Assembly (NCBI GenBank): GCA_000165345.1
Contig: CM000436.1
Span: 448,001 to 512,000 of the forward strand
Length of the DNA: 64,000 nt
Reading direction: 5' to 3'
A program made the translations under genes and the position numbers. Every line of letters starts with the position of its first letter. The first letter of the stretch is position 1. Below, in pieces: positions 1,664-55,364 of the stretch. Under the pieces are notes generated by a model. The model saw only the letters and a list, made by a program, of their open reading frames with translations. It did no database searches and had not been told where the DNA came from.

Positions 1664-3091
1664 TTATATTGAAAGACTTGTTTTAAAAGATATTGTTTTG
1701 AGTTCATATGAATTTATATCTAAAAGCACCAAAGTAGGGTTATTAGAGAACTCAGGAATGGTGAAGCATAATGGTCCATTATTAGGGAATCTATATGACC
1801 CAAATTCTGATTGATTTCCTGCAAAAATGACTTGTGGAAAAGATTCATCGGTATAATCCAAAGCAAAAGGATCACGATCGAAGAATGGGTAAGTAGGTAT
1901 TACATCAGGGCATGTAGGAGCAATATTTCTTGATTCAACACAAAATTTGAGAGCATCAATAGGCTTCGAATATGAAGAAAATAGAGAAATCTTTGAAATA
2001 CATTGGCCAGAAACACCAGTTACTCTTACATTGTTAATAGAAAACAAGCAAGGATTTGTGAAAGAATTAAACGACTGATAGTTTCTTGAATTTTTGAATA
2101 TATAAGGCTGGAAAGGAGGTTGAGGAAGAGAAATTGGAACAGGATCATCCTCTCCAGGCATGATCGCAAGAGATATAGTGGAAGCCAGCTGAGAAATAAA
2201 GGAATCAACCACACCAAGCCTGCTTGAAAGCAACTCATTATTTACAACTAACTTGGTTCCAGTACCAGTAACAGTCTCTTTTGCAGTATCTAAAAGTCTA
2301 ATAATGTTTCCTGCTATAATTAAGTAAGCAATTTGTGATGATAAAAGTTTGTGTTCGCTACTATATGAAGAAACTCCCATAATGAAATCACGAAATAATT
2401 GTAAAGATAATGAATTCTCTATTTCTGATCCTATATTTAAACCGGAAACAAAAGCCAAATATACTGGCTGAGAAGACTTCCCTAATGTATATTCTTTTCC
2501 AATAATCTCTTCAGGAGGAGAGGCAAAAGTCAAATCCGAGACTAGAAAGTTGCCCCCTGAATTTTGTACTCCCCTTACTGCTAGTATGGTACCAGAAATC
2601 AAATTATTCATTGAAAATACATCTTCTTTTAGAGTCAATGGAATTCTTGATGAACTATCCTCTATATAAACCTTGTCATCATTACTAGTATAATTGCTTA
2701 ATTGACTGTTCTTTGTAGCCTCTTCGATATCTTGAAGATACTCATCCAAAATTGTTGGTCTATTTTTCATTTCCTTTGTCACAAACCCCATGATAATGCA
2801 TTCAGACTCAATTTTCATATCTTTAAGCTCATTCAAAATAGGTATCGATCTATCCTCAGGGTTACCCTGACTTGCAATCTTCTCAACTTTTTCCTGTTCT
2901 ACTGAAAGATGGCACTTCCACTTTCTCTGTACTGCTTTCAATAAAAATGGACGCAAACTCATGAACCTTGAAAAACATAAGTGGCAGTACTGGTGTGGAA
3001 AGCTGTAATCTTTTACTCTAAATCGTTCACATTCATTCTTAATATCTACTTCCGGCCGTTTCAGGCTCTTAACATCTTTTTCTAATTTCAT
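1664..3091 (-). CDS. POLD2: DNA polymerase delta subunit 2 (Pol31/POLD2 family, B-subunit phosphoesterase domain)
   Basis: The 475-aa ORF starts with ATG at 3091. Its C-terminal half is collinear with POLD2: MPGEDDPVPISLPQPPF, TGVSGQCISKISLFSS, PTCPDVIPTYPFFDRDPFALDY and VIFAGNQSEFGSYRF match the human MPGEFDP...FxCGNxxSFG motifs. Confidence 0.85.
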   Translation of the reverse strand: MKLEKDVKSLKRPEVDIKNECERFRVKDYSFPHQYCHLCFSRFMSLRPFLLKAVQRKWKCHLSVEQEKVEKIASQGNPEDRSIPILNELKDMKIESECIIMGFVTKEMKNRPTILDEYLQDIEEATKNSQLSNYTSNDDKVYIEDSSSRIPLTLKEDVFSMNNLISGTILAVRGVQNSGGNFLVSDLTFASPPEEIIGKEYTLGKSSQPVYLAFVSGLNIGSEIENSLSLQLFRDFIMGVSSYSSEHKLLSSQIAYLIIAGNIIRLLDTAKETVTGTGTKLVVNNELLSSRLGVVDSFISQLASTISLAIMPGEDDPVPISLPQPPFQPYIFKNSRNYQSFNSFTNPCLFSINNVRVTGVSGQCISKISLFSSYSKPIDALKFCVESRNIAPTCPDVIPTYPFFDRDPFALDYTDESFPQVIFAGNQSEFGSYRFPNNGPLCFTIPEFSNNPTLVLLDINSYELKTISFKTSLSI

Positions 3092-3234
3092 TGGGAAATA
3101 CCTTGATCCTCTCTAATGCTTATAAATGAAACACACAACACCTAAGTTCTTTGCTTAATCTATTTTCCTTCTTATTTTATCGATCCCCCTTTCCCACTTT
3201 TAAAATATTCTCGACTCCCTATTAAAAAACAATG

Positions 3235-5285: not shown

Positions 5286-5966
5286 ATGTACAGAGAACAA
5301 TCATCAACAGTTTTGGATTCTCCTATGAATGGAGGTAGTGCTAAACTTGGAGCTTCTAGTTCATCATCTATGAGCTCAAATTTCACTAGAATGGACAGTT
5401 TTAATCGATCAGGAAGCAAAACAGGGTCAATTGCGCCAAAATCTTCAGAATATGGTCCAACAGTACAGCAGATTTTGGAAACTTATGAGAGTCTTAGATT
5501 GAAAGCTCAAGGACTTGCTAAGAGAAAATTGAGATCCTGGGATGGAGACTTCTTTTGCCTTTCATCTTTCCAAAAAGTATCACAACCAAAAGAAATTACA
5601 GATCGACTTGAAAGGAATCTTCGATACTTCTTACTAAATTATATTGTAATTATACTGGGTATGACTATGCTCTCTCTAATTTTGAATCCTATTTCTTTAA
5701 TCATTATTTTAATATCAACCTTTTCTTCAGCTTTTGTAGCATCTAGACCAACAGATATGGTAGTATTGCCAGGAGATAATGTAATTAGCAAGAAAGTGGC
5801 TTTATATGTGATAGCAGGAACATCAACTGTGATCATTCTTGTATTTTCAGGAGCTCTATTATTCACATCCTTGGCAGTATCGCTCATTCTTGTATGTATC
5901 CATGCAGTCATACACATTGGAAAGTCTAATTACGACCAGGTTGCAAACTTAGAGAGCGAAGTATAA
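5286..5966 (+). CDS. PRA1 (prenylated Rab acceptor / Yip3) family membrane protein
   Basis: ATG at 5286. The sequence LRSWDGDFF...RLERNLRYFLLNY is followed by hydrophobic hairpin segments, matching the PRA1 signature (RPWxxFF ... NLxYYxxNY). Confidence 0.8.
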   Translation: MYREQSSTVLDSPMNGGSAKLGASSSSSMSSNFTRMDSFNRSGSKTGSIAPKSSEYGPTVQQILETYESLRLKAQGLAKRKLRSWDGDFFCLSSFQKVSQPKEITDRLERNLRYFLLNYIVIILGMTMLSLILNPISLIIILISTFSSAFVASRPTDMVVLPGDNVISKKVALYVIAGTSTVIILVFSGALLFTSLAVSLILVCIHAVIHIGKSNYDQVANLESEV

Positions 5967-6109
5967 TACCTAGAAGTTAATTACAATGAAAATAGATCCA
6001 GCTATAAAGATTAGAAACTAAAAAGATTCACAAAGTTTTAGTACTTAATAGATTAAATTATATATATCATCTAAATATAGTCTTTACACTTATCAGTACC
6101 TGCTTATAA

Positions 6110-6751
6110 TTAGAGCTTCTCCTGAACTCTTTTAGAGACTATTCTAAGGTGGTTGTAGACTTTTCCAGGAGGAGTTCCCAAAATTAAACTACATAGAGCA
6201 TCTCTTGCTAATTTAATATTATGAAAGGCTCCCATTAAATGGAGTTTCTGACCAGCTAAGACAATCCTAGTTCTGGTTGAATTTTCTATAGCATACTTTG
6301 TTTTACCATCCCTACCAGAAATACGACCAATACAACGTGACAAATGTGCTCCATTCAATCTTTTTACGTCTTTAATTTCAAAGCTTTCTATATAAAGATC
6401 ATCCAATCTCAAAAGAGCAATGGCATCTTGAAGCTCAAATCCAAGTAGAAAAGCCTTAATAAAGTCAACTCCTTTTTGAAGAGATCCAATATCAGTGCAA
6501 TCTGGCCCATATTTAAGCTCTACACATCTTCTCTTTGTATTCATTCTTACATGTAATCCCATATGTTCTACCAAAGGAGTAACAATATTAATCCATTGGT
6601 TCTTTAAAGGAGTCATTCTATTTTCAGGAACCATCACTCTTCTTATTTCATTACTTCTGTTAACTTCTGTTCCAGTTAAAGGCTTAAAAGGTCCTTCAGT
6701 CCGTCTCTCCTCCTCAACCATATCCATATCCATACTCTTTGTTTCTCCCAT
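6110..6751 (-). CDS. PNO1: PNO1/Dim2 KH-domain pre-40S ribosome biogenesis factor
   Basis: The 213-aa ORF starts with ATG at 6751. RRVMVPENRMTPLKNQWINIV...CVELKYGPDCTDIGSLQKGVDFIKAFLLGF...IGRISGRDGKTKYAIENSTRTRIVLAGQKLHLMG is a KH-domain protein of the PNO1 family. Confidence 0.8.
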   Translation of the reverse strand: MGETKSMDMDMVEEERRTEGPFKPLTGTEVNRSNEIRRVMVPENRMTPLKNQWINIVTPLVEHMGLHVRMNTKRRCVELKYGPDCTDIGSLQKGVDFIKAFLLGFELQDAIALLRLDDLYIESFEIKDVKRLNGAHLSRCIGRISGRDGKTKYAIENSTRTRIVLAGQKLHLMGAFHNIKLARDALCSLILGTPPGKVYNHLRIVSKRVQEKL

Positions 6752-6905
6752 ATGTAATAAACCTAAAGAAATATACTTCTAAGATATCCAATTCTTCTTT
6801 TCCCTACAAAAATCTACTCTGGAAAAATCTTAATAATCTCCTCCTTAATTATTCTTCTTCGCTGCTTAACTCTATTTTATACCGTCAAAATTAACCATTG
6901 GGTGT

Positions 6906-6929
6906 GCCCGCCTAAAAGTTGGCGCCGAA
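6906..6929. promoter_or_regulatory. E2F-like boxes GCCCGCC and TTGGCGCCGAA in the PNO1/kinase divergent promoter
   Basis: The sequence GTGCCCGCCTAAAAGTTGGCGCCGAAGG lies between two divergently oriented start codons. Confidence 0.4.
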
Positions 6930-7308
6930 GGCTTAAAAATGGGTTTTTGGAGGGGAAAGTCATCTTAAGAATAAAAGAAAGAGGAAGATGTGGAATATAT
7001 TTTATTAGAAGAAAAAGTGTTGAAATGTAATGAGAGTGCTTTAAAAGATATAGGTGTGAAAATCGGACTACATTCATGTGAGGTTAAATCTGTTACTTGG
7101 AATGTAATGTTATTTAGTGTTAATAATAGAGGTAATTTATATGAATTACTATTATAACATAAAATTTATATGGATTAAAATAAGATTAAAAGGAGAAGAA
7201 TTAGTAAGAAACAATATTCTTAGAAATAAATAAGAACTTTAGAAGCTTAAAAAAGCAAAATAACAAAATCTGTGCAACAGTAATAGCTTTAACTAAGGTT
7301 TTTAATCA

Positions 7309-8523
7309 ATGATGATTACAAAAGGAGGAGATTACTCAGAATATTCAGAAATACATACACAGGATATTGAGAAATCTAAAGATTATGACCAAGAATGTGT
7401 AGAATTAAGGAAAAGTGTGAGAGAATATCTCGAAAAAGAAAGCAAAATAAACTTATACTTTTCAGAAAAGAAGAGTTATTTGATAAACAAAGAATTTGTA
7501 GATATTCAGGTCCAATTAAACTCACAACTTTGCCCAAAAGTTAAACTTTGGAAACGAATTGAAGAACCAAACTCAAAAGAATTCTCCAAATTAAAAAATA
7601 ACCCAACTCAACATCTTTTTGCAATTAAAATCTATTCAAAACCCCAACTCATTCGGAGAAACATTGTCTATTCTTCAGACAGGAAAATCAGGACCCAAAT
7701 GCATCGTGTAATTAACGAAATCAAGATTCTACAATTCCTTGCAAAAACCGATCCCACATACTACTATATTGCTAAATTACACAAAGTTCTTGAATCTTTT
7801 CCTTCTACCTTATCTTCCGGAAAATTGTATCTCATCTTTGACTTTTTTCCGATTGGACCCACAATGGCGCCCGACACAGGGGCAAGGCGCGCGCGCGCGT
7901 GCCCGGGGTTTGAAAAGAATCTTTTAGTGTATACTCCAAGTCCTGCATTAGAGAGGACAGAGGTAAGTATAAGGAGAATGGCTTACTGTATTGGAGTAGC
8001 TCTATCTAGACTTCATGAGTTAGGGATTGTTCATAGAGATGTAAAACCTGATAATATTATGCTTACACATACTGGAGATGCATTTTTGAATGACTTTAAT
8101 TCTGCAGAATTTTTAATTCAAGGTAAATATGTTCAGGGCACTGAAGGAACATATGCATTTTTTCCTCCTGAGCATTGTAATATAAACAACAATAGCAATA
8201 AAATTGTTACTGAAAGGAACGAATCATCCGAAATCAATGAACAAGAAGAATGTTCCCAATCTACGCTCCAATTGGGATGTCCAGCAGATATGTGGGCTCT
8301 TGGAGTCACAATTTGGTGTTGGTTTTATGGTACACTACCTTTTCAAGGAAATAGTATTTTAGAGCTTTTTGACAATATTACAAAATGTAAGATTGAGTTC
8401 CCTAGACAGCCTACTTTATCAAATGAGTGTATTAATGCCATTTTGCATCTTTTAGACCCAGAACCGAATTCCCGTTGGACTGCTCGTCAGTTTCTTGAGT
8501 CCGACTGGTTTTCTAAAAACTAA
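7309..8523 (+). CDS. Serine/threonine protein kinase with a divergent N-lobe and a GC-rich in-frame insert
   Basis: ATG at 7309. Kinase motifs are present: LFAIKIYSK (VAIK-like), HRDVKPDNIML (catalytic loop) and DMWALGVTIWCWFYGTLPF (subdomain IX). No clear glycine loop is visible. Confidence 0.75.
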   Translation: MMITKGGDYSEYSEIHTQDIEKSKDYDQECVELRKSVREYLEKESKINLYFSEKKSYLINKEFVDIQVQLNSQLCPKVKLWKRIEEPNSKEFSKLKNNPTQHLFAIKIYSKPQLIRRNIVYSSDRKIRTQMHRVINEIKILQFLAKTDPTYYYIAKLHKVLESFPSTLSSGKLYLIFDFFPIGPTMAPDTGARRARACPGFEKNLLVYTPSPALERTEVSIRRMAYCIGVALSRLHELGIVHRDVKPDNIMLTHTGDAFLNDFNSAEFLIQGKYVQGTEGTYAFFPPEHCNINNNSNKIVTERNESSEINEQEECSQSTLQLGCPADMWALGVTIWCWFYGTLPFQGNSILELFDNITKCKIEFPRQPTLSNECINAILHLLDPEPNSRWTARQFLESDWFSKN

Positions 8524-14347: not shown

Positions 14348-15757
14348 TTAACCCCATGTCTCCTTTAAAATAGTTGATAAATCCTCCTTTGTAACTGTTG
14401 CAGGATTTGTATGAATAGCTTCATCACTTAAAGCTCTAGAAATCATTCTATCCAAGTTCATTTGTAATGTATTGAAATTTAAATTATCAATTACACTCTT
14501 TTTACTAAGAATTGGTATTGTCCTCAATGCATTTTCTTCTGTAACATAGGCTCGAGTTTCTTTATCAGATATTGAAAATGATCCAGATACATGATTGATA
14601 AATTCTTGATTATCTATTTCTATACATTGCGAGAATACTGACAATTTAACACCTATTGGGTCAAACCATCCTTTAGACTTGAAATTAGATAGAGAAGAAT
14701 GAATTGAACTGAGAGAATCTGGAAGTAAGAGAGTCTTTTTTATTTCATCAATTCTGTTTAAAAGTGCCTGTATTTTATTAGAATTTGAATCTTCTGGGTT
14801 ACTTATTCCAAGTTCAACTGAAAGATTTGCAATCAAAGGCCCCACAGTCTGGCTTTTCTTTATATTAAAGTTGAGCACTTGAGTAATCACAATACTGTCA
14901 ATAAGTCCATGAGGAAGTGTAAATACTTCTGAAATACTTCTGGATAAGATTGTTCCAAGACCTACATCAGTTGCTGAAATTGCAACTCCAGATATTGAAG
15001 CAGCCTTATGGATTTCTTGCAATAAACTAATATCCTTCTCAATGACAGCTTTAGTCAAACTATTAAATAAAATTCTTAAAGACTGAATAGCCATACATGA
15101 TGAATAATGGTTTGAAGAATTACTAATGTAAGACTCTAATCCATGAAGAAGAGCTCTCATACCTGTAATAGAAGCCACAAACATTGGAATTGTTAATATG
15201 AAACTCGAGTCTATTACTGATATATCTGGTAAAAACGCCACACCTGAAACTATCATTTGTCTGCCATCATCATTCCTTAAAACCGCCGTAGATGTCACTT
15301 CTGACCCAGAACCACATGTTGTCGGAATGCATACCAACTTCTTTATTAAACTCCCTCTTCTATGTATCATTGCCTTTTTTGAACTCTTTTCCTTATCATT
15401 ATTGTTAGTTCCCATTGCAAGTGAACGCAAAGTCGTATTCGGATCCTCGTATAAAACTCTTAGTACTTTTGCTATATCCATACAATGTCCTCCACCCATC
15501 CCTATTATACAGTCAGGCTTATATGATTTCATCTGCAAAAGAATTGTGCTTAATGCATTCGCATCTGACTCACATAGCTCAGAAAACTCTATTTGAATTC
15601 CATTCTTCTTCACCATCGACTCAACTCTCATCGCCTGACATTTTACTGCTGAAGAAAATACCAATATGGCTCGCCCCACATTTGAATCCAACAAATCTGA
15701 GATTATATCTCTAAAGGAATCCATATTATAGTATATTATTGGTGTAAGAATTAACAT
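14348..15757 (-). CDS. Iron-containing (group III) alcohol dehydrogenase, monofunctional
   Basis: Fe-ADH motifs are present: PDCIIGMGGGHCMDIAKV, CIPTTCGSGSEVT and GMRALLHGLESY. The tracked ORF starts with TTG at 15787. The first ATG whose downstream sequence fits the family N-terminus (MLILTPIIYYN ~ FxxPxxIxFG) is at 15757. An alternative ATG lies at 15724. Confidence 0.8.
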   Translation of the reverse strand: MLILTPIIYYNMDSFRDIISDLLDSNVGRAILVFSSAVKCQAMRVESMVKKNGIQIEFSELCESDANALSTILLQMKSYKPDCIIGMGGGHCMDIAKVLRVLYEDPNTTLRSLAMGTNNNDKEKSSKKAMIHRRGSLIKKLVCIPTTCGSGSEVTSTAVLRNDDGRQMIVSGVAFLPDISVIDSSFILTIPMFVASITGMRALLHGLESYISNSSNHYSSCMAIQSLRILFNSLTKAVIEKDISLLQEIHKAASISGVAISATDVGLGTILSRSISEVFTLPHGLIDSIVITQVLNFNIKKSQTVGPLIANLSVELGISNPEDSNSNKIQALLNRIDEIKKTLLLPDSLSSIHSSLSNFKSKGWFDPIGVKLSVFSQCIEIDNQEFINHVSGSFSISDKETRAYVTEENALRTIPILSKKSVIDNLNFNTLQMNLDRMISRALSDEAIHTNPATVTKEDLSTILKETWG

Positions 15758-15936
15758 TTTTTTTATCTTAACAACTATATTAATCAATATTTACCCAAAT
15801 TTTCTCAAAAAAAAAATACTCTTTAGCTCAAAAAAATACTTTAAATGACTATTTTTCACAACAAATTGTCCAACTGCCATTACTGTCAAAAGTGCATGCA
15901 AACATGCAATTTATTCTCTACATTACGTCATTCCAC

Positions 15937-15950: not shown

Positions 15951-16125
15951 TTAAGTAAAATCCTATACCGGGTAATATATTGAAAAAAAATTATATTAAT
16001 GGATCAACCAAAAATTGTACAAAAATATTAAAAGTCGTCTCAGATGGTTCCTAAAGTTAACAAATTAGTTTGATGTTTATTAATACTTGGTTATTTATAC
16101 TCTAATTGGGAGTAACATTTTAATA

Positions 16126-16934
16126 ATGACCGAGATTGAGGTAGCTTTGAGTTTTACTTCGTTTTTAATGCTTGTACTTACAAGTAGTATTCCTAATTTG
16201 TACAGATACATTGCATTGCTGTTAATTGAATTATGTTCGTGTATTATTGTTTCCATTCTACTTATTATCAAGCCCAAGTCTAATCAACGTTCTCTCTTAC
16301 CCACTATTGCATTAATTTCATATTCACTTATTAATGGTTTTATTGGAACTATTCTAACTATTTTTACTGCTTTTTTCTTGGGAGCTCACCTTGTTGACTT
16401 TGGAACCATTGTATTGTCTCTTTATTTTGGATTGGTTACTTTTAGAACATGTATATTTACTGGTTTTAAAAGTCTATTAGTTATGATTATTAAAAGGTAA
16501 GTGTATAAGTATAATGAGGAGAAATAAACAAGAAAAGTATATATTGGTCTCAAATGATTAAAACACTTAAGGGGTTTAAATGAGCTTAATATTTTATTAT
16601 TAAGTGATTTAAAAAAAAGAAATTGAATCTTTTCAATTTTATGATGAGCAAATATATCTACAAGAGAAAAATCCAAGCAAGTCAATTTTTCTCCTTTTTC
16701 TTTTATTCAATAATTTTAACTATTTAAATTATTTAGTCCTACTTTAAAGCCAAAAGATAGTAATATTGCTCCTATATTCTATTCTGCCTTATTAGCTTAC
16801 TTTTCTTGTTTTTCATGTATTCTTCAGTCAAACAACAACCTATTAAAATGGCCAAATTTTATACTCTTAGGAGCTGTTTTTGGAAGATTTCTAGGTACAT
16901 TATACAAGCTTTTTACTGGGAAGCCAAATGGTAA
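16126..16934 (+). CDS. Small multi-pass membrane protein (hypothetical), putative 2 exons: 16126..16496 and 16796..16934
   Basis: The hydrophobic ORF has four or more predicted TM segments. The first ATG is at 16126; the track start at 16087 is TTG. The ORF terminates at a GTAAGT donor at 16497. A downstream in-frame hydrophobic exon follows ...cttattAG and ends at a TAA at 16932-16934. The splice model is tentative. Confidence 0.35.
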
Positions 16935-17116: not shown

Positions 17117-19893
17117 TTAATGTTCTGGATATCTGACAAATCCAGAATAAGCGTCAATATAGAGTTGTTTAATCTCATTTAAAAGAGGGAATCTTGGATT
17201 AGCTCCCACACATTGATCATCAAGAGCATGGATACTCATAGACTCAACTTTTGACATATAATGTTCTTCCTCTATTCCATGATCTTTAACACACATTGGA
17301 ACTTGTAATGTTTTCTTGAGATTTTGTATTGCTTCAACTAGAATTCTAATATTAATACTCTCTTGATCCAAATTACTATCAAAGCTCTGATTGGACTTGA
17401 AATGCAAGATATCAACAAGCTTTGCATATCTACTCTTTGCTACAGGATACTTGTACTGAGATAGAATGGACTGTTTTGTTGGTCTATTAGATGCATTGTA
17501 AGAAATAATATGTGGTAAAAGTATTGCATTTGCAATTCCATGTGGAATATGCATTTGAGCTCCCAGTTGGTGAGCTAGAGCATGGCAAATTCCAAGAAAA
17601 GCATTTGAGAATGCCATACCAGCAATAGATGAAGCATTGTGTACATATTCTCTTGCCTTGGCATCTGCATTGATAACAGAGTTTGGCAAATGATCGAATA
17701 TAAGTCTCATAGCTTGAATGCAAAGTCCATCAGTGTATTCAGAAGCATAGGTTGCAACAAAAGCTTCAAGGGCATGTGTTAGAGCATCTAAGCCAGTTGC
17801 AGCTGCAAGGAACCTTGGCATAGAAAGAACAAAGTTGGCATCAACAATGGCCATATCAGGAGTAAGCTTGTAAGAAGCAATAGGATATTTGATTCCAGTG
17901 CTGTTATCAGTAATTACAGCAAATGGAGTCATTTCTGCTCCAGTACCAGAAGTAGTAGGAATACAAATAAATCTTTGAATTTTTCCACCGCTGGGAGGTA
18001 GTTTGACAATTCTCTTTCTAATATCCATAAATCTAGTAACAACTTCATTCCATTTGACAGTTGGATGTTCATACATAAGCCTTACAAGCTTGGAAGCGTC
18101 CATAGGAGAGCCTCCTCCAAAACCAATAAGACAATCTGGTTTGCTTACATTTAATCTTTTAACAATTTCCTTGACAGTTTCAACATCAGGTTCAGGAGGG
18201 ACTTCTGCAAACATCTCAGAGGCTACTCCTACAGACTTGAGACCTTCAATAAGATTATCAACAAACCCAAGACTAACCATGACTCTATCAGTAATAATGT
18301 AGGCTTTCTTTAAATTGATTTCTTTGAGATCTTGTAAAGCTTCTTCAAGGCATCCTCTATTGAAATAAATAGAAGGTGGAACCTTAAACCAGGAGATGTG
18401 GTCCCTTCTTTGTACAACTTGCTTGTAATTAAGCAAATGTTTTACACCAATTCCCTCAGCTGTTGAAGTATGGCCCCAGGAACCACATCCCAAAGTCAAA
18501 GAAGGAGTTTGACGGAAGTTAAACATTTCACCCATTGCTCCTTGAGCAGCTGGCATGCAAACTAGAACTCTTCCAGTGGGAATGCTTCTCTGGAACTCAG
18601 TAATTCTGCGTTTTCCTTCATCAGAATTTGGGTCAGTATATATACAAGATGTGTGTCCCAAACCACCAAATTCAACTAAGGCTTTTGCCTTGGAAACACC
18701 ATCATTAAAGTCGCTAGCTCTGATGATTGACAATACAGGACACAACTTTTCGTGAGACAGTTTCTCCCCTCTTCCAATTTCGTTGATTTCAGCAAGAATC
18801 ATAACAGCATCTTTTGGGATATCAATGGATGCCATCTTTGCGATTTCAACTGCACTAATTCCAACAGATTTAGGATTCATATTTCCATTTTCGTCAATTA
18901 ATAAATTCCCAAGTCTCTGGAGCTCATCTTTTGAAGAAATGATATGTACTCCTCTATTTTTGAATCCAGAAATCAACTTATCATATACTGAATCTAGAAC
19001 CACCAAACATTGTTCGGATGCGCAAATTAAACTGTTATCAAATGTTTTGGATAAAATTACTGAGTTCACAACCATTTCCAAATCTGAGAGTTCATCAACT
19101 AATACTGGTGAATTTCCTGCTCCTCCTCCCAAGGCTGGTTTTCCACATGAATAAGCTGCCTTCACCAAAGCCACTGAACCTGTTGCTAGAATGGCACTGA
19201 CAGAGCTATGGTTCATTAAGGAATTACATAAGGAAATACTTGCAACATCGATCCAACCAATACAATCCTCTGGAGCTCCTGCTTCTATTGCTGCATCCCT
19301 GATAATTTTGGCTGCTCTTATGGAGCTTCTAGCAGTTCTTGGATGAGGAGAAAATACTATGCAGTTTCTTGTCTTAAGGGAGATGAGGGATTTGAAGATC
19401 GTTGTAGATGTTGGATTTGTACATGGAGAGATTCCTGCCAAAATTCCCAATGGTTCAGCAACAATATCAATTCCTCCAAATTCATCATGTTCAATTACTC
19501 CTACAGTCTTTGTATTTCTGTACTTATTATAAATATTCTCTGATGCAAAGTGATTCTTTATTATCTTATCCTCTAACAATCCCATTCCACCATCTTCTAT
19601 TGCTAATACTGCCAACTCATATCTTGCACAGTTTGCTGCCAAGGAAGCTCTTTGAAAAATATAATCAACTTGCTCTTGAGAAAGTTTTAAAAAAGCTTTC
19701 TGAGCTACTTCCACCTTTAATTAGAAGAAAAATATATAAATAATAATCAAATCCAAGTTAATTCATATTTTTGGAGCTAGGAACAATCTGTTCCTCAATT
19801 TTCTCTTACCTTTTTTAATAATTCATCCAAGGACTCAACAGAATCGACCAGCTTTCCAATGCTCTGTGATACCTCAGGAATGTAAGCACTCAT
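17117..19893 (-). CDS. adhE: Bifunctional aldehyde/alcohol dehydrogenase AdhE, 2 exons: 19893..19810 and 19714..17117
   Basis: The 865-aa main ORF has ALDH and Fe-ADH domains. The tracked ORF begins with GTG at 19714 and has an in-frame TAA three codons upstream, so it has no usable ATG. An 84-nt upstream exon encodes MSAYIPEVSQSIGKLVDSVESLDELLKK, followed by a GTAAGA donor. An AG acceptor sits directly before GTGGAAGTAGCT. The spliced N-terminus ...ELDELLKKVEVAQKAFLKLSQEQVDYIFQRASLAA matches the E. coli AdhE N-terminus ...ELNALVERVKKAQREYASFTQEQVDKIFRAAALAA. Confidence 0.85.
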
Positions 19894-20620
19894 ATTTGAA
19901 AATCTGGAAAAATAATAAACAGTGTATTTATTTTCTTAATAATTATTTTCCTATAAATTATTCTCTAGCTCTGCTGATTAGTTTATTTACTCATTTTTTT
20001 TAATATCGCATGTAAACTCTACAAAAGTAGGCCGGTAAATACAAAAATTGCATGTAAACAATAAAAATGCATGCAATCCTCGAATTTCTGTCAAATTTTA
20101 AATTATTGAACTTATTTTCGATTCTTATGAATACTATTATTTTTAATGCTTTACTATTCGCCTTTTTCATTTATATACTAATTGATTCAAATACACAACA
20201 ACTTATTCCATTTCTTTAATTCTTCTGACATTGCTAGCTAAAAAAAATTTTGTAAATAACTAAATTTCAAAATAAATAAAATAGCATAATCCTGTAATTA
20301 CCTAGAATTAGTTTCATTAGAACAATACGTTGATGGAATCCTCTATTCAAATCCTTCTATTTACTTTCACATATTTTTTTTTTTACCTATTCGTCATTCA
20401 CAAAAATCCTATACCGGCATTAAATTTAGGCGCCAAAACTAATTATTTTCTCTTTTTCTATTCCATTTCAACATATAATAAGATTAACAAGTTAAAGCCA
20501 ATTTTATTTCTATAGAAATTTGGGGAGTTTTTTTTTGTAAAGTTTCTCCTTAAATTAATTGCTCCCCCTCAACTTTCTACTTTCAGTTTTATTTATACCC
20601 CACAACATGGAAAGGCAATT

Positions 20621-21556
20621 ATGAATAGTGAATGCAAGACTTTAGAAAAAGATATAGGTCTTGCTTATTGTAAAGTACTCTTGGTGGGTGTTGGAGGAAT
20701 TGGAACAGAAATCCTTAGATGTCTGATATTCTCCGGATTTAGACGAATTGATATCGTTGACTATGACTACGTTGAAGTCTCCAATATTTCCAGACAACTA
20801 TTTTTCAACCTTGGAGATGAAGGAAAGTCCAAGGTGCATGTTTTGGCGGCAAACGCAACAAACCACTTCAAGTCAGCAAAAGGATTAGAAATCAAGCCTT
20901 TTCATTCTGACATTTCCGACTTTTTCTCAAAGTTCAATGTGACCCCATCCGACTACAAAATCATTCTTTCTGGTTTGGATAATATTCATGCAAGAAGGAC
21001 ATTGAATGCTATAGTAATGACGCAATCTAGTCCTCAAGCTTATCCAATACTATTAGATAGTGGTACTGAAGGATTTAATGGCCATTCTAGAATCATTATT
21101 CCGGGAGAAACATCCTGCTATGAATGTACAATGGGACTCAACGTCCAAGATACTAACTTTCCACTCTGTGAAATCAAAGAATTCCCTAGAACACCTATTC
21201 ATTGTATAGCATATGCAAATTTTATATATGAGGAAGATGAACAAGACAATGAGGACTTTAAAAATCACAAAATTCTTAAGATTTATCAACTAGCACAAGA
21301 ACATGCAAAATCTTTTGGAATTCAGGGAGTCACTTTAGAATTAACAAAACAAATTATTGGAAATATCTTCCCAACACTTCTTTCTACAAATACAATTATT
21401 GCATCCTCTGTGGTTTCCCAGGCCATTAAGTATCTAAGAGGCTCTGGACAAGCCAAGAACCTTAAAAACTATTTTATGTATTATGGTCAAACAGGTATAT
21501 ATTCATCCTGCTTTGAAATTCACAAAGACGAAAACTGTATTTTTTGTAAGATATAA
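20621..21556 (+). CDS. UBA3: NEDD8-activating enzyme E1 catalytic subunit (UBA3-like ThiF/E1)
   Basis: VLLVGVGGIGTEILRCLIFSGF...DYDYVEVSNISRQ, SGTEGFNGHSRIIIPGETSCYECT, and FPLCEIKEFPRTPIHCIAY with the C-terminal ENCIFC motif are collinear with human UBA3 (...[24 protein letters not shown]...FPMCTIASMPRLPEHCIEY...ENCPACS). Confidence 0.85.
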   Translation: MNSECKTLEKDIGLAYCKVLLVGVGGIGTEILRCLIFSGFRRIDIVDYDYVEVSNISRQLFFNLGDEGKSKVHVLAANATNHFKSAKGLEIKPFHSDISDFFSKFNVTPSDYKIILSGLDNIHARRTLNAIVMTQSSPQAYPILLDSGTEGFNGHSRIIIPGETSCYECTMGLNVQDTNFPLCEIKEFPRTPIHCIAYANFIYEEDEQDNEDFKNHKILKIYQLAQEHAKSFGIQGVTLELTKQIIGNIFPTLLSTNTIIASSVVSQAIKYLRGSGQAKNLKNYFMYYGQTGIYSSCFEIHKDENCIFCKI

Positions 21557-54482: not shown

Positions 54483-55364
54483 TTAGTTCTTTAGTTCATC
54501 AGAAATTGGATTGTTTGCATTACTACTTGCAGGAGGTGGATTCAAATGAGGGTGTTGGACTGGCTGAAGAAGCTGATTAAGACCAATATAGTCAGCCACA
54601 TTAATTACATCCTTATCATTACAAGTAGAAATCCTCTGTCTAACAGTTTCTTGTAGAGCATTAACCTGAGCTTCAAAAGCTGTCAAATAAGCAATCTTGG
54701 CGGTTTCAACTTCAGCTCTTGCCTGCTCCTCAGATCTAAGTTCATCTGGGCCGCTTGAAAGTCTTCCAGTATGATCCATTCTTGATCTCTCTACAAGTTG
54801 ATCAATAAGAGGTCTATCTGGATCTAAACCTGCCCAAATAAGATTCTTACCAACTCCAACGCTTCTTCTTACAACTCCAATAGCTAATAATACATTCAAA
54901 ACATCATAAACTCTTCTTCTAATATTCTTGGCTTCGGGATTCTTAGAACGACCTGGACCATCTCCTAATTCCATATTAATTAGATGCTCAGTCATTTCAT
55001 GATAAGAGGCGACCTTAATTGCACTAACTTTTTCACATACTCTGTGACTAAAAACTCCTAATTTACAGCGGTTTCTCATTTGGCTTGGCGTACCTCCATA
55101 TTCTGCCACGCCGCCGGCTCCATTACCTGCACCTCCGGCACCAGCACCAGTACCAGCTAAGTGATGTTGAGGCAATAACGATAAATGAGGTAAAGATGAG
55201 TGATCAGCAGAAACTAATTGCTCATTTGTTCCTCCCGCTGATGTTCCTTGTGGCATTTTAAATTGTCCAGGGTGATGCTGCTCCATGCCTCCCCCAACAG
55301 ATACTGGGTGTTGAGAATATCCACTTGGAACAAACCCTCCAGCTCCTAAGTTTGCGTTATTCAT
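54483..55364 (-). CDS. TFDP: E2F dimerisation partner (DP/TFDP family winged-helix transcription factor)
   Basis: FSHRVCEKVSAIKVASYHEMTEHL...NIRRRVYDVLNVLLAIGVVRR matches the DP1 DNA-binding domain (FSMKVCEKV...NIRRRVYDALNVLMAMNII), and a coiled-coil dimerisation region follows. The track start is TTG at 55373; the first ATG is at 55364. Confidence 0.8.
   Translation of the reverse strand: MNNANLGAGGFVPSGYSQHPVSVGGGMEQHHPGQFKMPQGTSAGGTNEQLVSADHSSLPHLSLLPQHHLAGTGAGAGGAGNGAGGVAEYGGTPSQMRNRCKLGVFSHRVCEKVSAIKVASYHEMTEHLINMELGDGPGRSKNPEAKNIRRRVYDVLNVLLAIGVVRRSVGVGKNLIWAGLDPDRPLIDQLVERSRMDHTGRLSSGPDELRSEEQARAEVETAKIAYLTAFEAQVNALQETVRQRISTCNDKDVINVADYIGLNQLLQPVQHPHLNPPPASSNANNPISDELKN

Follow-up and report, generated by a model that had tools for sequence, protein, structure and literature searches.

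Results

A 5' intron in the AdhE gene

The AdhE gene of Cryptosporidium (cgd8_1720) is almost certainly interrupted near its 5' end by a canonical phase-0 GT-AG spliceosomal intron of 95 nt, and this intron was probably inherited from the common ancestor of the Cryptosporidium and chromerid AdhE genes. The gene lies on the minus strand of a 64,000-nt stretch of Cryptosporidium parvum/hominis chromosome 8 (GCA_000165345.1, contig CM000436.1, positions 448,001 to 512,000), which is referred to below as the window and which provides the numbering for all coordinates. The intron and the gene model are already known: both are present in the current annotation and neither is a discovery.

An initial annotation of the window had proposed an 84-nt upstream exon and a 95-nt intron flanked by GTAAGA and TTAAAG, and it placed all of these elements on the minus strand correctly to the base. 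Exon 1 (19810-19893, minus strand) comprises the ATG at 19893-19891 and 27 further codons, which encode the peptide MSAYIPEVSQSIGKLVDSVESLDELLKK; exon-1 peptides include SAYIPEVSQSIGK and LVDSVESLDELLK. The intron (19715-19809, minus strand; 24% GC) opens with the 5' splice site GTAAGA (19804-19809) and closes with the 3' splice site TTAAAG (19715-19720), ahead of which lies a T-rich tract. Exon 2 (17117-19714, minus strand) contains 865 codons and a stop, and encodes most of the aldehyde dehydrogenase domain and the entire Fe-ADH domain. An in-frame TAA within the intron (19721-19723, minus strand), three codons ahead of a GTG at 19714-19712, sets the upstream limit of the long open reading frame (ORF), as had been pointed out. 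The GTG from which that ORF had been started is present at this site, but it is not a real initiation codon and reflects an artefact of bacterial-style ORF calling.

Because 95 nt is not a multiple of 3 (95 mod 3 = 2) and the intron contains stops in all three frames, the two pieces of the ORF can be joined only by its exact removal. Splicing would fuse codon 28 (AAG, Lys) with codon 29 (GTG, Val) and would yield an 893-residue bifunctional aldehyde/alcohol dehydrogenase that starts with the ATG at 19893. Without splicing, only a 32-residue peptide would be made from this ATG, which corresponds to a 32-codon ORF readable from unspliced RNA (19795-19893, minus strand; MSAY...KKVREN followed by a stop). 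The window ranges from 27 to 38% GC and is dense with long uninterrupted ORFs. The introns of C. parvum have a mean length of 99 bp and a GC content of 22% (n = 688; PMC4637869), and the AdhE intron is typical of them in both size and composition. Its donor, GTAAGA, is one base off the genus consensus GTAAGT, which is found in 84% of introns (PMC2483917).

By its domains (PF00171, PF00465, PF25137) and its similarity to known enzymes over its full length, the predicted spliced protein is AdhE, a bifunctional acetaldehyde-CoA/alcohol dehydrogenase. Its best match is a Cryptosporidium AdhE, and it shares 50-53% identity with bacterial AdhEs over 97-99% of its length. The N-terminal part aligns with the solved AdhE structures 6AHC, 6TQH and 7DAG (E of about 1e-79 to 1e-83). 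Within a set of 54 eukaryotic and bacterial AdhEs that we used to score conservation, Cys259 in the ICASEQ motif is invariant, and twelve positions before Met72 are at least 90% conserved (L22, Q33, Q41, V44, D45, I47, F48, A55, R59, L62, A63 and A66). L22 is encoded by exon 1, and the other 11 positions lie within the first 43 codons of exon 2, ahead of Met72. The spliced product aligns without gaps across the junction to the AdhEs of the chromerid Vitrella and of bacteria. Exon 1 had been said to restore homology to the bacterial N-terminus, a statement that holds for part of the exon: approximately residues 16-28, or about 13 of the 28, align with bacterial AdhE, but the first 15 or so do not and instead form an extension common only to a clade of eukaryotic AdhEs that is described below. 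The alignment to the solved structures likewise begins at query residue 14-18, and the Pfam Aldedh match begins at residue 20.

Conservation of the exon and the intron across the genus

We compared the locus with genomic orthologues from C. ubiquitum, C. felis, a C. xiaoi-group species and C. andersoni; with the window, these genomes represent five species and cover the gastric and intestinal clades, which form the deepest split of the genus. Exon 1 measures 84 nt in all five, and the intron, 95 nt in the window, measures 91, 82, 120 and 68 nt in the four orthologues, respectively. The orthologous donors are GTAAGT (three species) or GTAGGT, with GTA[A/G]G common to all five species, and in each species an AG lies directly ahead of the codons for V-x-[V/I]-A-Q. 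Differences from the window within exon 1, counted at first, second and third codon positions, number 0/1/8, 6/0/15, 7/1/16 and 6/4/15 in the four orthologues, and the same excess at third positions is seen in the first 84 nt of exon 2. Identity to the window within the intron drops to 38-59%, with 14-27 gap columns. On the evidence of these alignments, exon 1 evolves as coding sequence and the intron drifts in both length and sequence. A TTAAC/CTAAC motif occurs 23-78 nt from the AG in four of the five species, which we did not treat as a branch-point assignment because C. parvum has been reported to have no clear branch-point consensus (PMC2483917).

The intron also contains a short hairpin, GGAACA-GAT-TGTTCC (19775-19795, minus strand), that is present in C. 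felis as well and has a counterpart with one compensatory pair in C. ubiquitum (GAGCA...TGCTC). We considered whether the intron hosts a structured RNA and rejected this idea: folding of the whole intron was no better than that of shuffled sequences (z of -1.1 to +0.5), and the hairpin is probably due to chance. No Rfam match was found in window positions 19500-20700.

An intronless contig that joins the two exons

A Logan contig of 2,839 nt (L001, run SRR31831731), which comes from a close relative with 94% amino acid identity, contains the 893-residue ORF without interruption. Against the window, the contig yields two alignment blocks, 19921-19808 and 19718-17116, that skip the intron exactly; the blocks overlap by 6 nt because an AAAG|GT repeat is present at both boundaries. 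Its alignment to the C. ubiquitum genome is split in the same way, and the junction in the contig corresponds to the upstream AG rather than to the AG that lies 15 nt downstream. The contig reaches 56 nt beyond the ATG on one side and 101 nt beyond the stop on the other, and this shape suggests an RNA origin.

Existing gene models

An 893-residue protein identical to the spliced product at every residue is deposited in GenBank for C. parvum and C. hominis (KAL3126394.1, KAL5366904.1, PPS98165.1 and QOY39926.1), and the corresponding UniRef entry is A0A7S7REL6_CRYPV. The comparison with annotated AdhE models of related species that had been recommended yielded models of 893-895 residues with the same exon 1 in C. 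meleagridis, C. canis, C. felis, the C. xiaoi group and C. andersoni. Taken together, the logic of the reading frames, the conservation across the genus, the intronless contig and the identical deposited protein bear out the proposal of a 5' spliceosomal intron. QOY39926.1 presumably belongs to the IOWA-ATCC annotation of C. parvum. That annotation incorporated 1,926 updates, and its introns are described as 100% supported by RNA-seq (Baptista et al., 2022; PMC8744675). From this published statement, together with the presumed assignment, we infer that splicing occurs in C. parvum itself.

Two legacy forms of cgd8_1720 cover the same locus and exon 2 but are both missing exon 1. The original Iowa II model (EAK89685.1/XP_627078.1; P0227) has 867 residues, starts with LKVEVAQ and has no initial Met; it equals the stop-to-stop ORF at 17117-19720, which begins right after the intronic TAA. 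The second form has 822 residues and starts at an internal ATG (19583-19585, minus strand) that encodes Met72, the first internal Met of the spliced protein. This form is represented by XP_668075.1 and CUV07719.1, which have the exact window sequence, and by TRY49977.1 of C. tyzzeri, and the C. hominis TU502 model is of the same kind. It is 71 residues short, a loss that extends to conserved parts of the aldehyde dehydrogenase domain. Both the 867- and the 822-residue models are truncated mis-annotations. The exon junction is also annotated inconsistently elsewhere in the genus: the C. ubiquitum model (P0002, 888 residues; locus L003, approximately 3085-3190) loses VEIAQ, and one C. canis model (P0224, 898 residues) inserts VSWGL at the junction. 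These two variants are probably annotation errors.

The 822-residue form was also the subject of an enzymology study from 2024, in which the ORF was amplified from genomic DNA starting at ATGGGATTGTTAGAG, i.e., at Met72 (PMC11225183). Both primers with which that study cloned C. parvum AdhE match the window with 0 mismatches, at 19552-19585 (minus strand, forward primer) and 17117-17151 (plus strand). The alignment of the spliced protein to E. coli AdhE has a constant offset of 13, and the 822-residue construct therefore has no equivalent of approximately the first 58 residues of the E. coli enzyme.

Alternatives to the spliced gene model

Were there no functional intron, the gene would be intronless and would start at Met72, and the upstream exon would be a chance ORF or an upstream ORF. 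The 822-residue sequence that this alternative predicts has been deposited exactly (XP_668075.1 and CUV07719.1, with TRY49977.1 for C. tyzzeri), and the 2024 study described the gene as intronless, with a product of 822 amino acids, and found that recombinant protein of this length has alcohol dehydrogenase (ADH) activity (PMC11225183). That description weighs against the spliced model, as do two points that concern the intronless contig: a poly(A) tail was looked for on L001 and none was found, and the contig could in principle be genomic DNA of a species that lost the intron. We nevertheless consider an intronless gene highly improbable. At the protein level, the 43 codons that precede Met72 in exon 2 show conservation that extends to bacteria, including the 11 positions at 90% or more, and exon 1 shows coding constraint throughout the genus, with a fixed length while that of the intron varies. 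The contig joins both pieces exactly, and an enzyme that began at Met72 would be without the N-terminal segment that corresponds to the start of E. coli AdhE. The published assays covered the ADH half-reaction of the 822-residue protein but not the aldehyde dehydrogenase half (PMC11225183). Equally improbable is that the acceptor is the AG at 19701-19700 (minus strand), either as the only form or as an isoform, which would give an 888-residue protein without VEVAQ. This AG, 15 nt downstream, keeps the reading frame, and its equivalent serves as the acceptor in the annotated C. ubiquitum protein, which lacks VEIAQ. However, the contig uses the upstream AG, the V-x-[V/I]-A-Q motif is kept in all Cryptosporidium, in Vitrella and in bacteria, with Q33 among the positions conserved at 90% or more, and the models of all other species use the upstream site.

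Age of the intron

The nearest relative of the Cryptosporidium protein outside the genus is the AdhE of Vitrella brassicaformis, a free-living chromerid alga, with 55% identity. We determined the Vitrella introns by comparing the genomic locus (L006; CDMY01000291.1) with an intronless contig (L007) that encodes the annotated protein (P0006), which revealed 17 GT-AG introns. Intron 1 of Vitrella is a phase-0 intron of 96 nt that follows codon 26 (...DLLMEE|VYVAQD). In a three-way alignment, the Cryptosporidium intron and Vitrella intron 1 fall in the same column, 28, and in the same phase, 0, and the alignment is gap-free from the junction to the conserved QEQVD.IF block. The two introns are thus alike in their position before V-x-V-A-Q, in phase and in length (96 versus 95 nt), but they differ in their donors (GTCAGC versus GTAAGA) and their sequences cannot be aligned. 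The 16 further introns of Vitrella AdhE are all missing from Cryptosporidium.

Cryptosporidium and Vitrella group with the gregarine Lankesteria, the proteins P0007, P0010 and P0122, and the contig L008 in a single clade of eukaryotic AdhEs that was recovered in 200 of 200 bootstraps, within which Cryptosporidium is sister to the rest. A search with an N-terminal profile for clade members split by introns returned mostly bacterial metagenome fragments, and its useful matches were exon 1 of L008 and the contig L012. L008 is a 14-kb genomic contig (Logan run SRR31860988; 45% GC) that carries AdhE at 5520-8403 and represents a third lineage of the clade. Its gene contains a single intron of 208 nt (GTAAGC...TTGCAG) in the codon after EYVHS, and the other 800 codons are uninterrupted. 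This intron matches Vitrella intron 2 in both position and phase (column 91, phase 2). L012 (Logan run SRR33454302; 29% GC; 788-1402) represents a fourth lineage and passes the positions of introns 1 and 2 uninterrupted. It appears to leave the AdhE frame at AAT G|GTGAGC, which would be a phase-1 donor 7 codons downstream of Vitrella intron 3, where Vitrella itself has no intron; the contig stops before any acceptor.

We evaluated whether these matches in position could be coincidental, given 17 Vitrella introns over 2,682 coding positions. Under a uniform model of insertion, the probability was approximately 0.006 per coincidence and approximately 4e-5 for the Cryptosporidium and L008 matches jointly. 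Under a conservative model that restricts insertion to AG|G, the window coding sequence (CDS) offers 32 sites, of which 3 coincide with Vitrella introns; this raises the probability of the Cryptosporidium match to approximately 0.09 and the joint probability to approximately 6e-4. The Cryptosporidium junction is an AG|GT proto-splice site, but the L008 junction, AC|A, is not.

At nt 500 and 619 of the window AdhE CDS, within exon 2, AG|G also occurs precisely where Vitrella introns 3 and 4 are located. These sites may be exonic footprints of lost introns or may be due to chance; 3 of the 32 AG|G sites coincide.

The shared column and phase, together with membership in one clade, suggest that acquisition of the gene and gain of the intron probably predate the split of chromerids and apicomplexans. 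We consider it likely that the Cryptosporidium intron was inherited from an ancestor shared with the chromerids and is the sole survivor of a once intron-richer gene. In the simplest reading, the ancestral gene of the clade already had at least introns 1 and 2, and lineages with compact genomes kept different 5'-proximal survivors. The fuller scenario, to which we give somewhat guarded preference, is that a bacterial AdhE entered an ancestor that was presumably not yet a gut parasite and was colonized there by introns, among them at least Vitrella introns 1 and 2 and perhaps many of the 17, all before the chromerid and apicomplexan lines separated; Cryptosporidium would subsequently have lost all but the 5'-most intron.

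Alternatively, the intron could be real but gained independently in Cryptosporidium, with the match to Vitrella reflecting two separate insertions into a favoured AG|GT proto-splice site. The junctions of Cryptosporidium and Vitrella are both of the form (A/G)AG|GT, and with insertion restricted to AG|G, the probability of a chance match is the approximately 0.09 given above. L008 and L012 both read through the position of intron 1 without an intron, and inheritance therefore needs one or two extra losses. If the apparent intron of L012 does occupy a position not found in Vitrella, intron positions in the clade are not all inherited. Furthermore, our tree was built by neighbour joining only, with approximately 40 of the closest bacterial AdhEs taken from the top hits, and it leaves out the other eukaryotic AdhEs of Entamoeba, Giardia, green algae and fungi. 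These considerations weigh against an ancient origin of the intron, but we still regard an independent gain as unlikely, although a real possibility. The uniform model disfavours it, and the only intron of L008 coincides with Vitrella intron 2 at a site that is not a proto-splice site, which makes the two matches improbable jointly even under the conservative model. In addition, the Cryptosporidium lineage has undergone strong intron loss, with introns in approximately 10% of genes (PMC4637869), and AG|G at former intron sites can be the footprint of a lost intron, which would inflate the conservative estimate. We therefore retain inheritance from an ancestor shared with chromerids as the preferred explanation. 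The initial annotation had remarked that the intron would be a gain after transfer from bacteria. Because a gene of bacterial origin can have gained a spliceosomal intron only after its transfer, the remark is correct by logic; what it does not identify is a novelty of Cryptosporidium, as an intron of Vitrella occupies the same column in the same phase.

Gene neighbourhood and other features of the window

AdhE lies in a conserved gene order, ThiF-family E1, AdhE, a small membrane protein (PIG-F in C. andersoni) and a monofunctional Fe-ADH, that is kept in all Cryptosporidium genomes examined. The neighbouring genes covered by this comparison are located in the window at 14348-15787 (minus strand), 16087-16500 (plus strand) and 20621-21556 (plus strand). 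The neighbouring Fe-ADH (EAK89684) was listed as eubacterial in an earlier survey (Huang et al., 2004; PMC545779). We considered whether it is a recent copy of the C-terminal half of AdhE, but the two are only 28% identical, and a recent duplication was therefore rejected. In Vitrella brassicaformis, a pyruvate formate-lyase gene (PF02901/PF01228) is arranged head-to-head with AdhE at a distance of 245 nt (L006 1-2001, L007 1-2001), so that two bacterial-type genes of anaerobic fermentation adjoin in a free-living alga; the intronless contig L007 covers both divergent genes.

Elsewhere in the window, two long stop-to-stop ORFs, at 26768-27949 (plus strand) and 54483-55475 (minus strand), have their first ATG 55 and 37 codons inside, respectively, and may have unrecognized 5' exons or simply long leaders. 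GC skew is +0.19 to +0.27 over approximately 10 kb (24000-34000) and near zero or negative in the rest of the window. The stretch of positive skew overlaps large genes on both strands.

Discussion

Two points from this analysis are worth reporting to the community: truncated gene models, with consequences for published enzymology, and a probably ancient origin of both the intron and the gene that carries it. AdhE is pursued as a drug target against Cryptosporidium, and three incompatible models of the protein coexist in public databases. The enzyme used in the 2024 inhibitor screen is 71 N-terminal residues short, and the missing part belongs to the aldehyde dehydrogenase domain. Consequently, the kinetics, oligomeric state and acetyl-CoA-reducing activity of that construct may not represent those of the native enzyme.

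The second point bears on how Cryptosporidium came to possess AdhE. A common account holds that the gene was an intestinal adaptation obtained from a gut bacterium (PMC4777385). If the gene and its introns were indeed acquired before chromerids and apicomplexans diverged, that account would be contradicted. The shared intron position, and a clade that includes Vitrella and gregarines, suggest that both gene and intron are older than the genus, which reframes a textbook case of horizontal transfer as adaptation to the gut. In Huang et al. (2004), the bacterial affinity of AdhE was noted to dissolve once the sampling included other protists, and the gene was not listed as a transfer (PMC545779). 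In our literature search, we found no paper that describes the intron shared with Vitrella or the alveolate AdhE clade; the search returned only a general remark that intron reduction in apicomplexans is possible and needs confirmation (Woo et al., 2015; PMC4501334). Early acquisition, if true, would also provide a dated, gene-level case in which a transferred gene gained introns and then lost them with a 5' bias.

This pattern invites comparison with the intron-poor genomes in which introns are reportedly retained with a bias toward the 5' end, as is said to have been described by Mourier and Jeffares in 2003 and by Roy and Penny in 2007, and for which a model of cDNA-mediated intron loss has reportedly been put forward. 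The survivor in Cryptosporidium would be the 5'-most ancestral intron, and the independent lineage L008 similarly keeps only the second-most 5' intron. AdhE also differs from those systems in that the genes are of bacterial ancestry and all of their introns are post-transfer gains.

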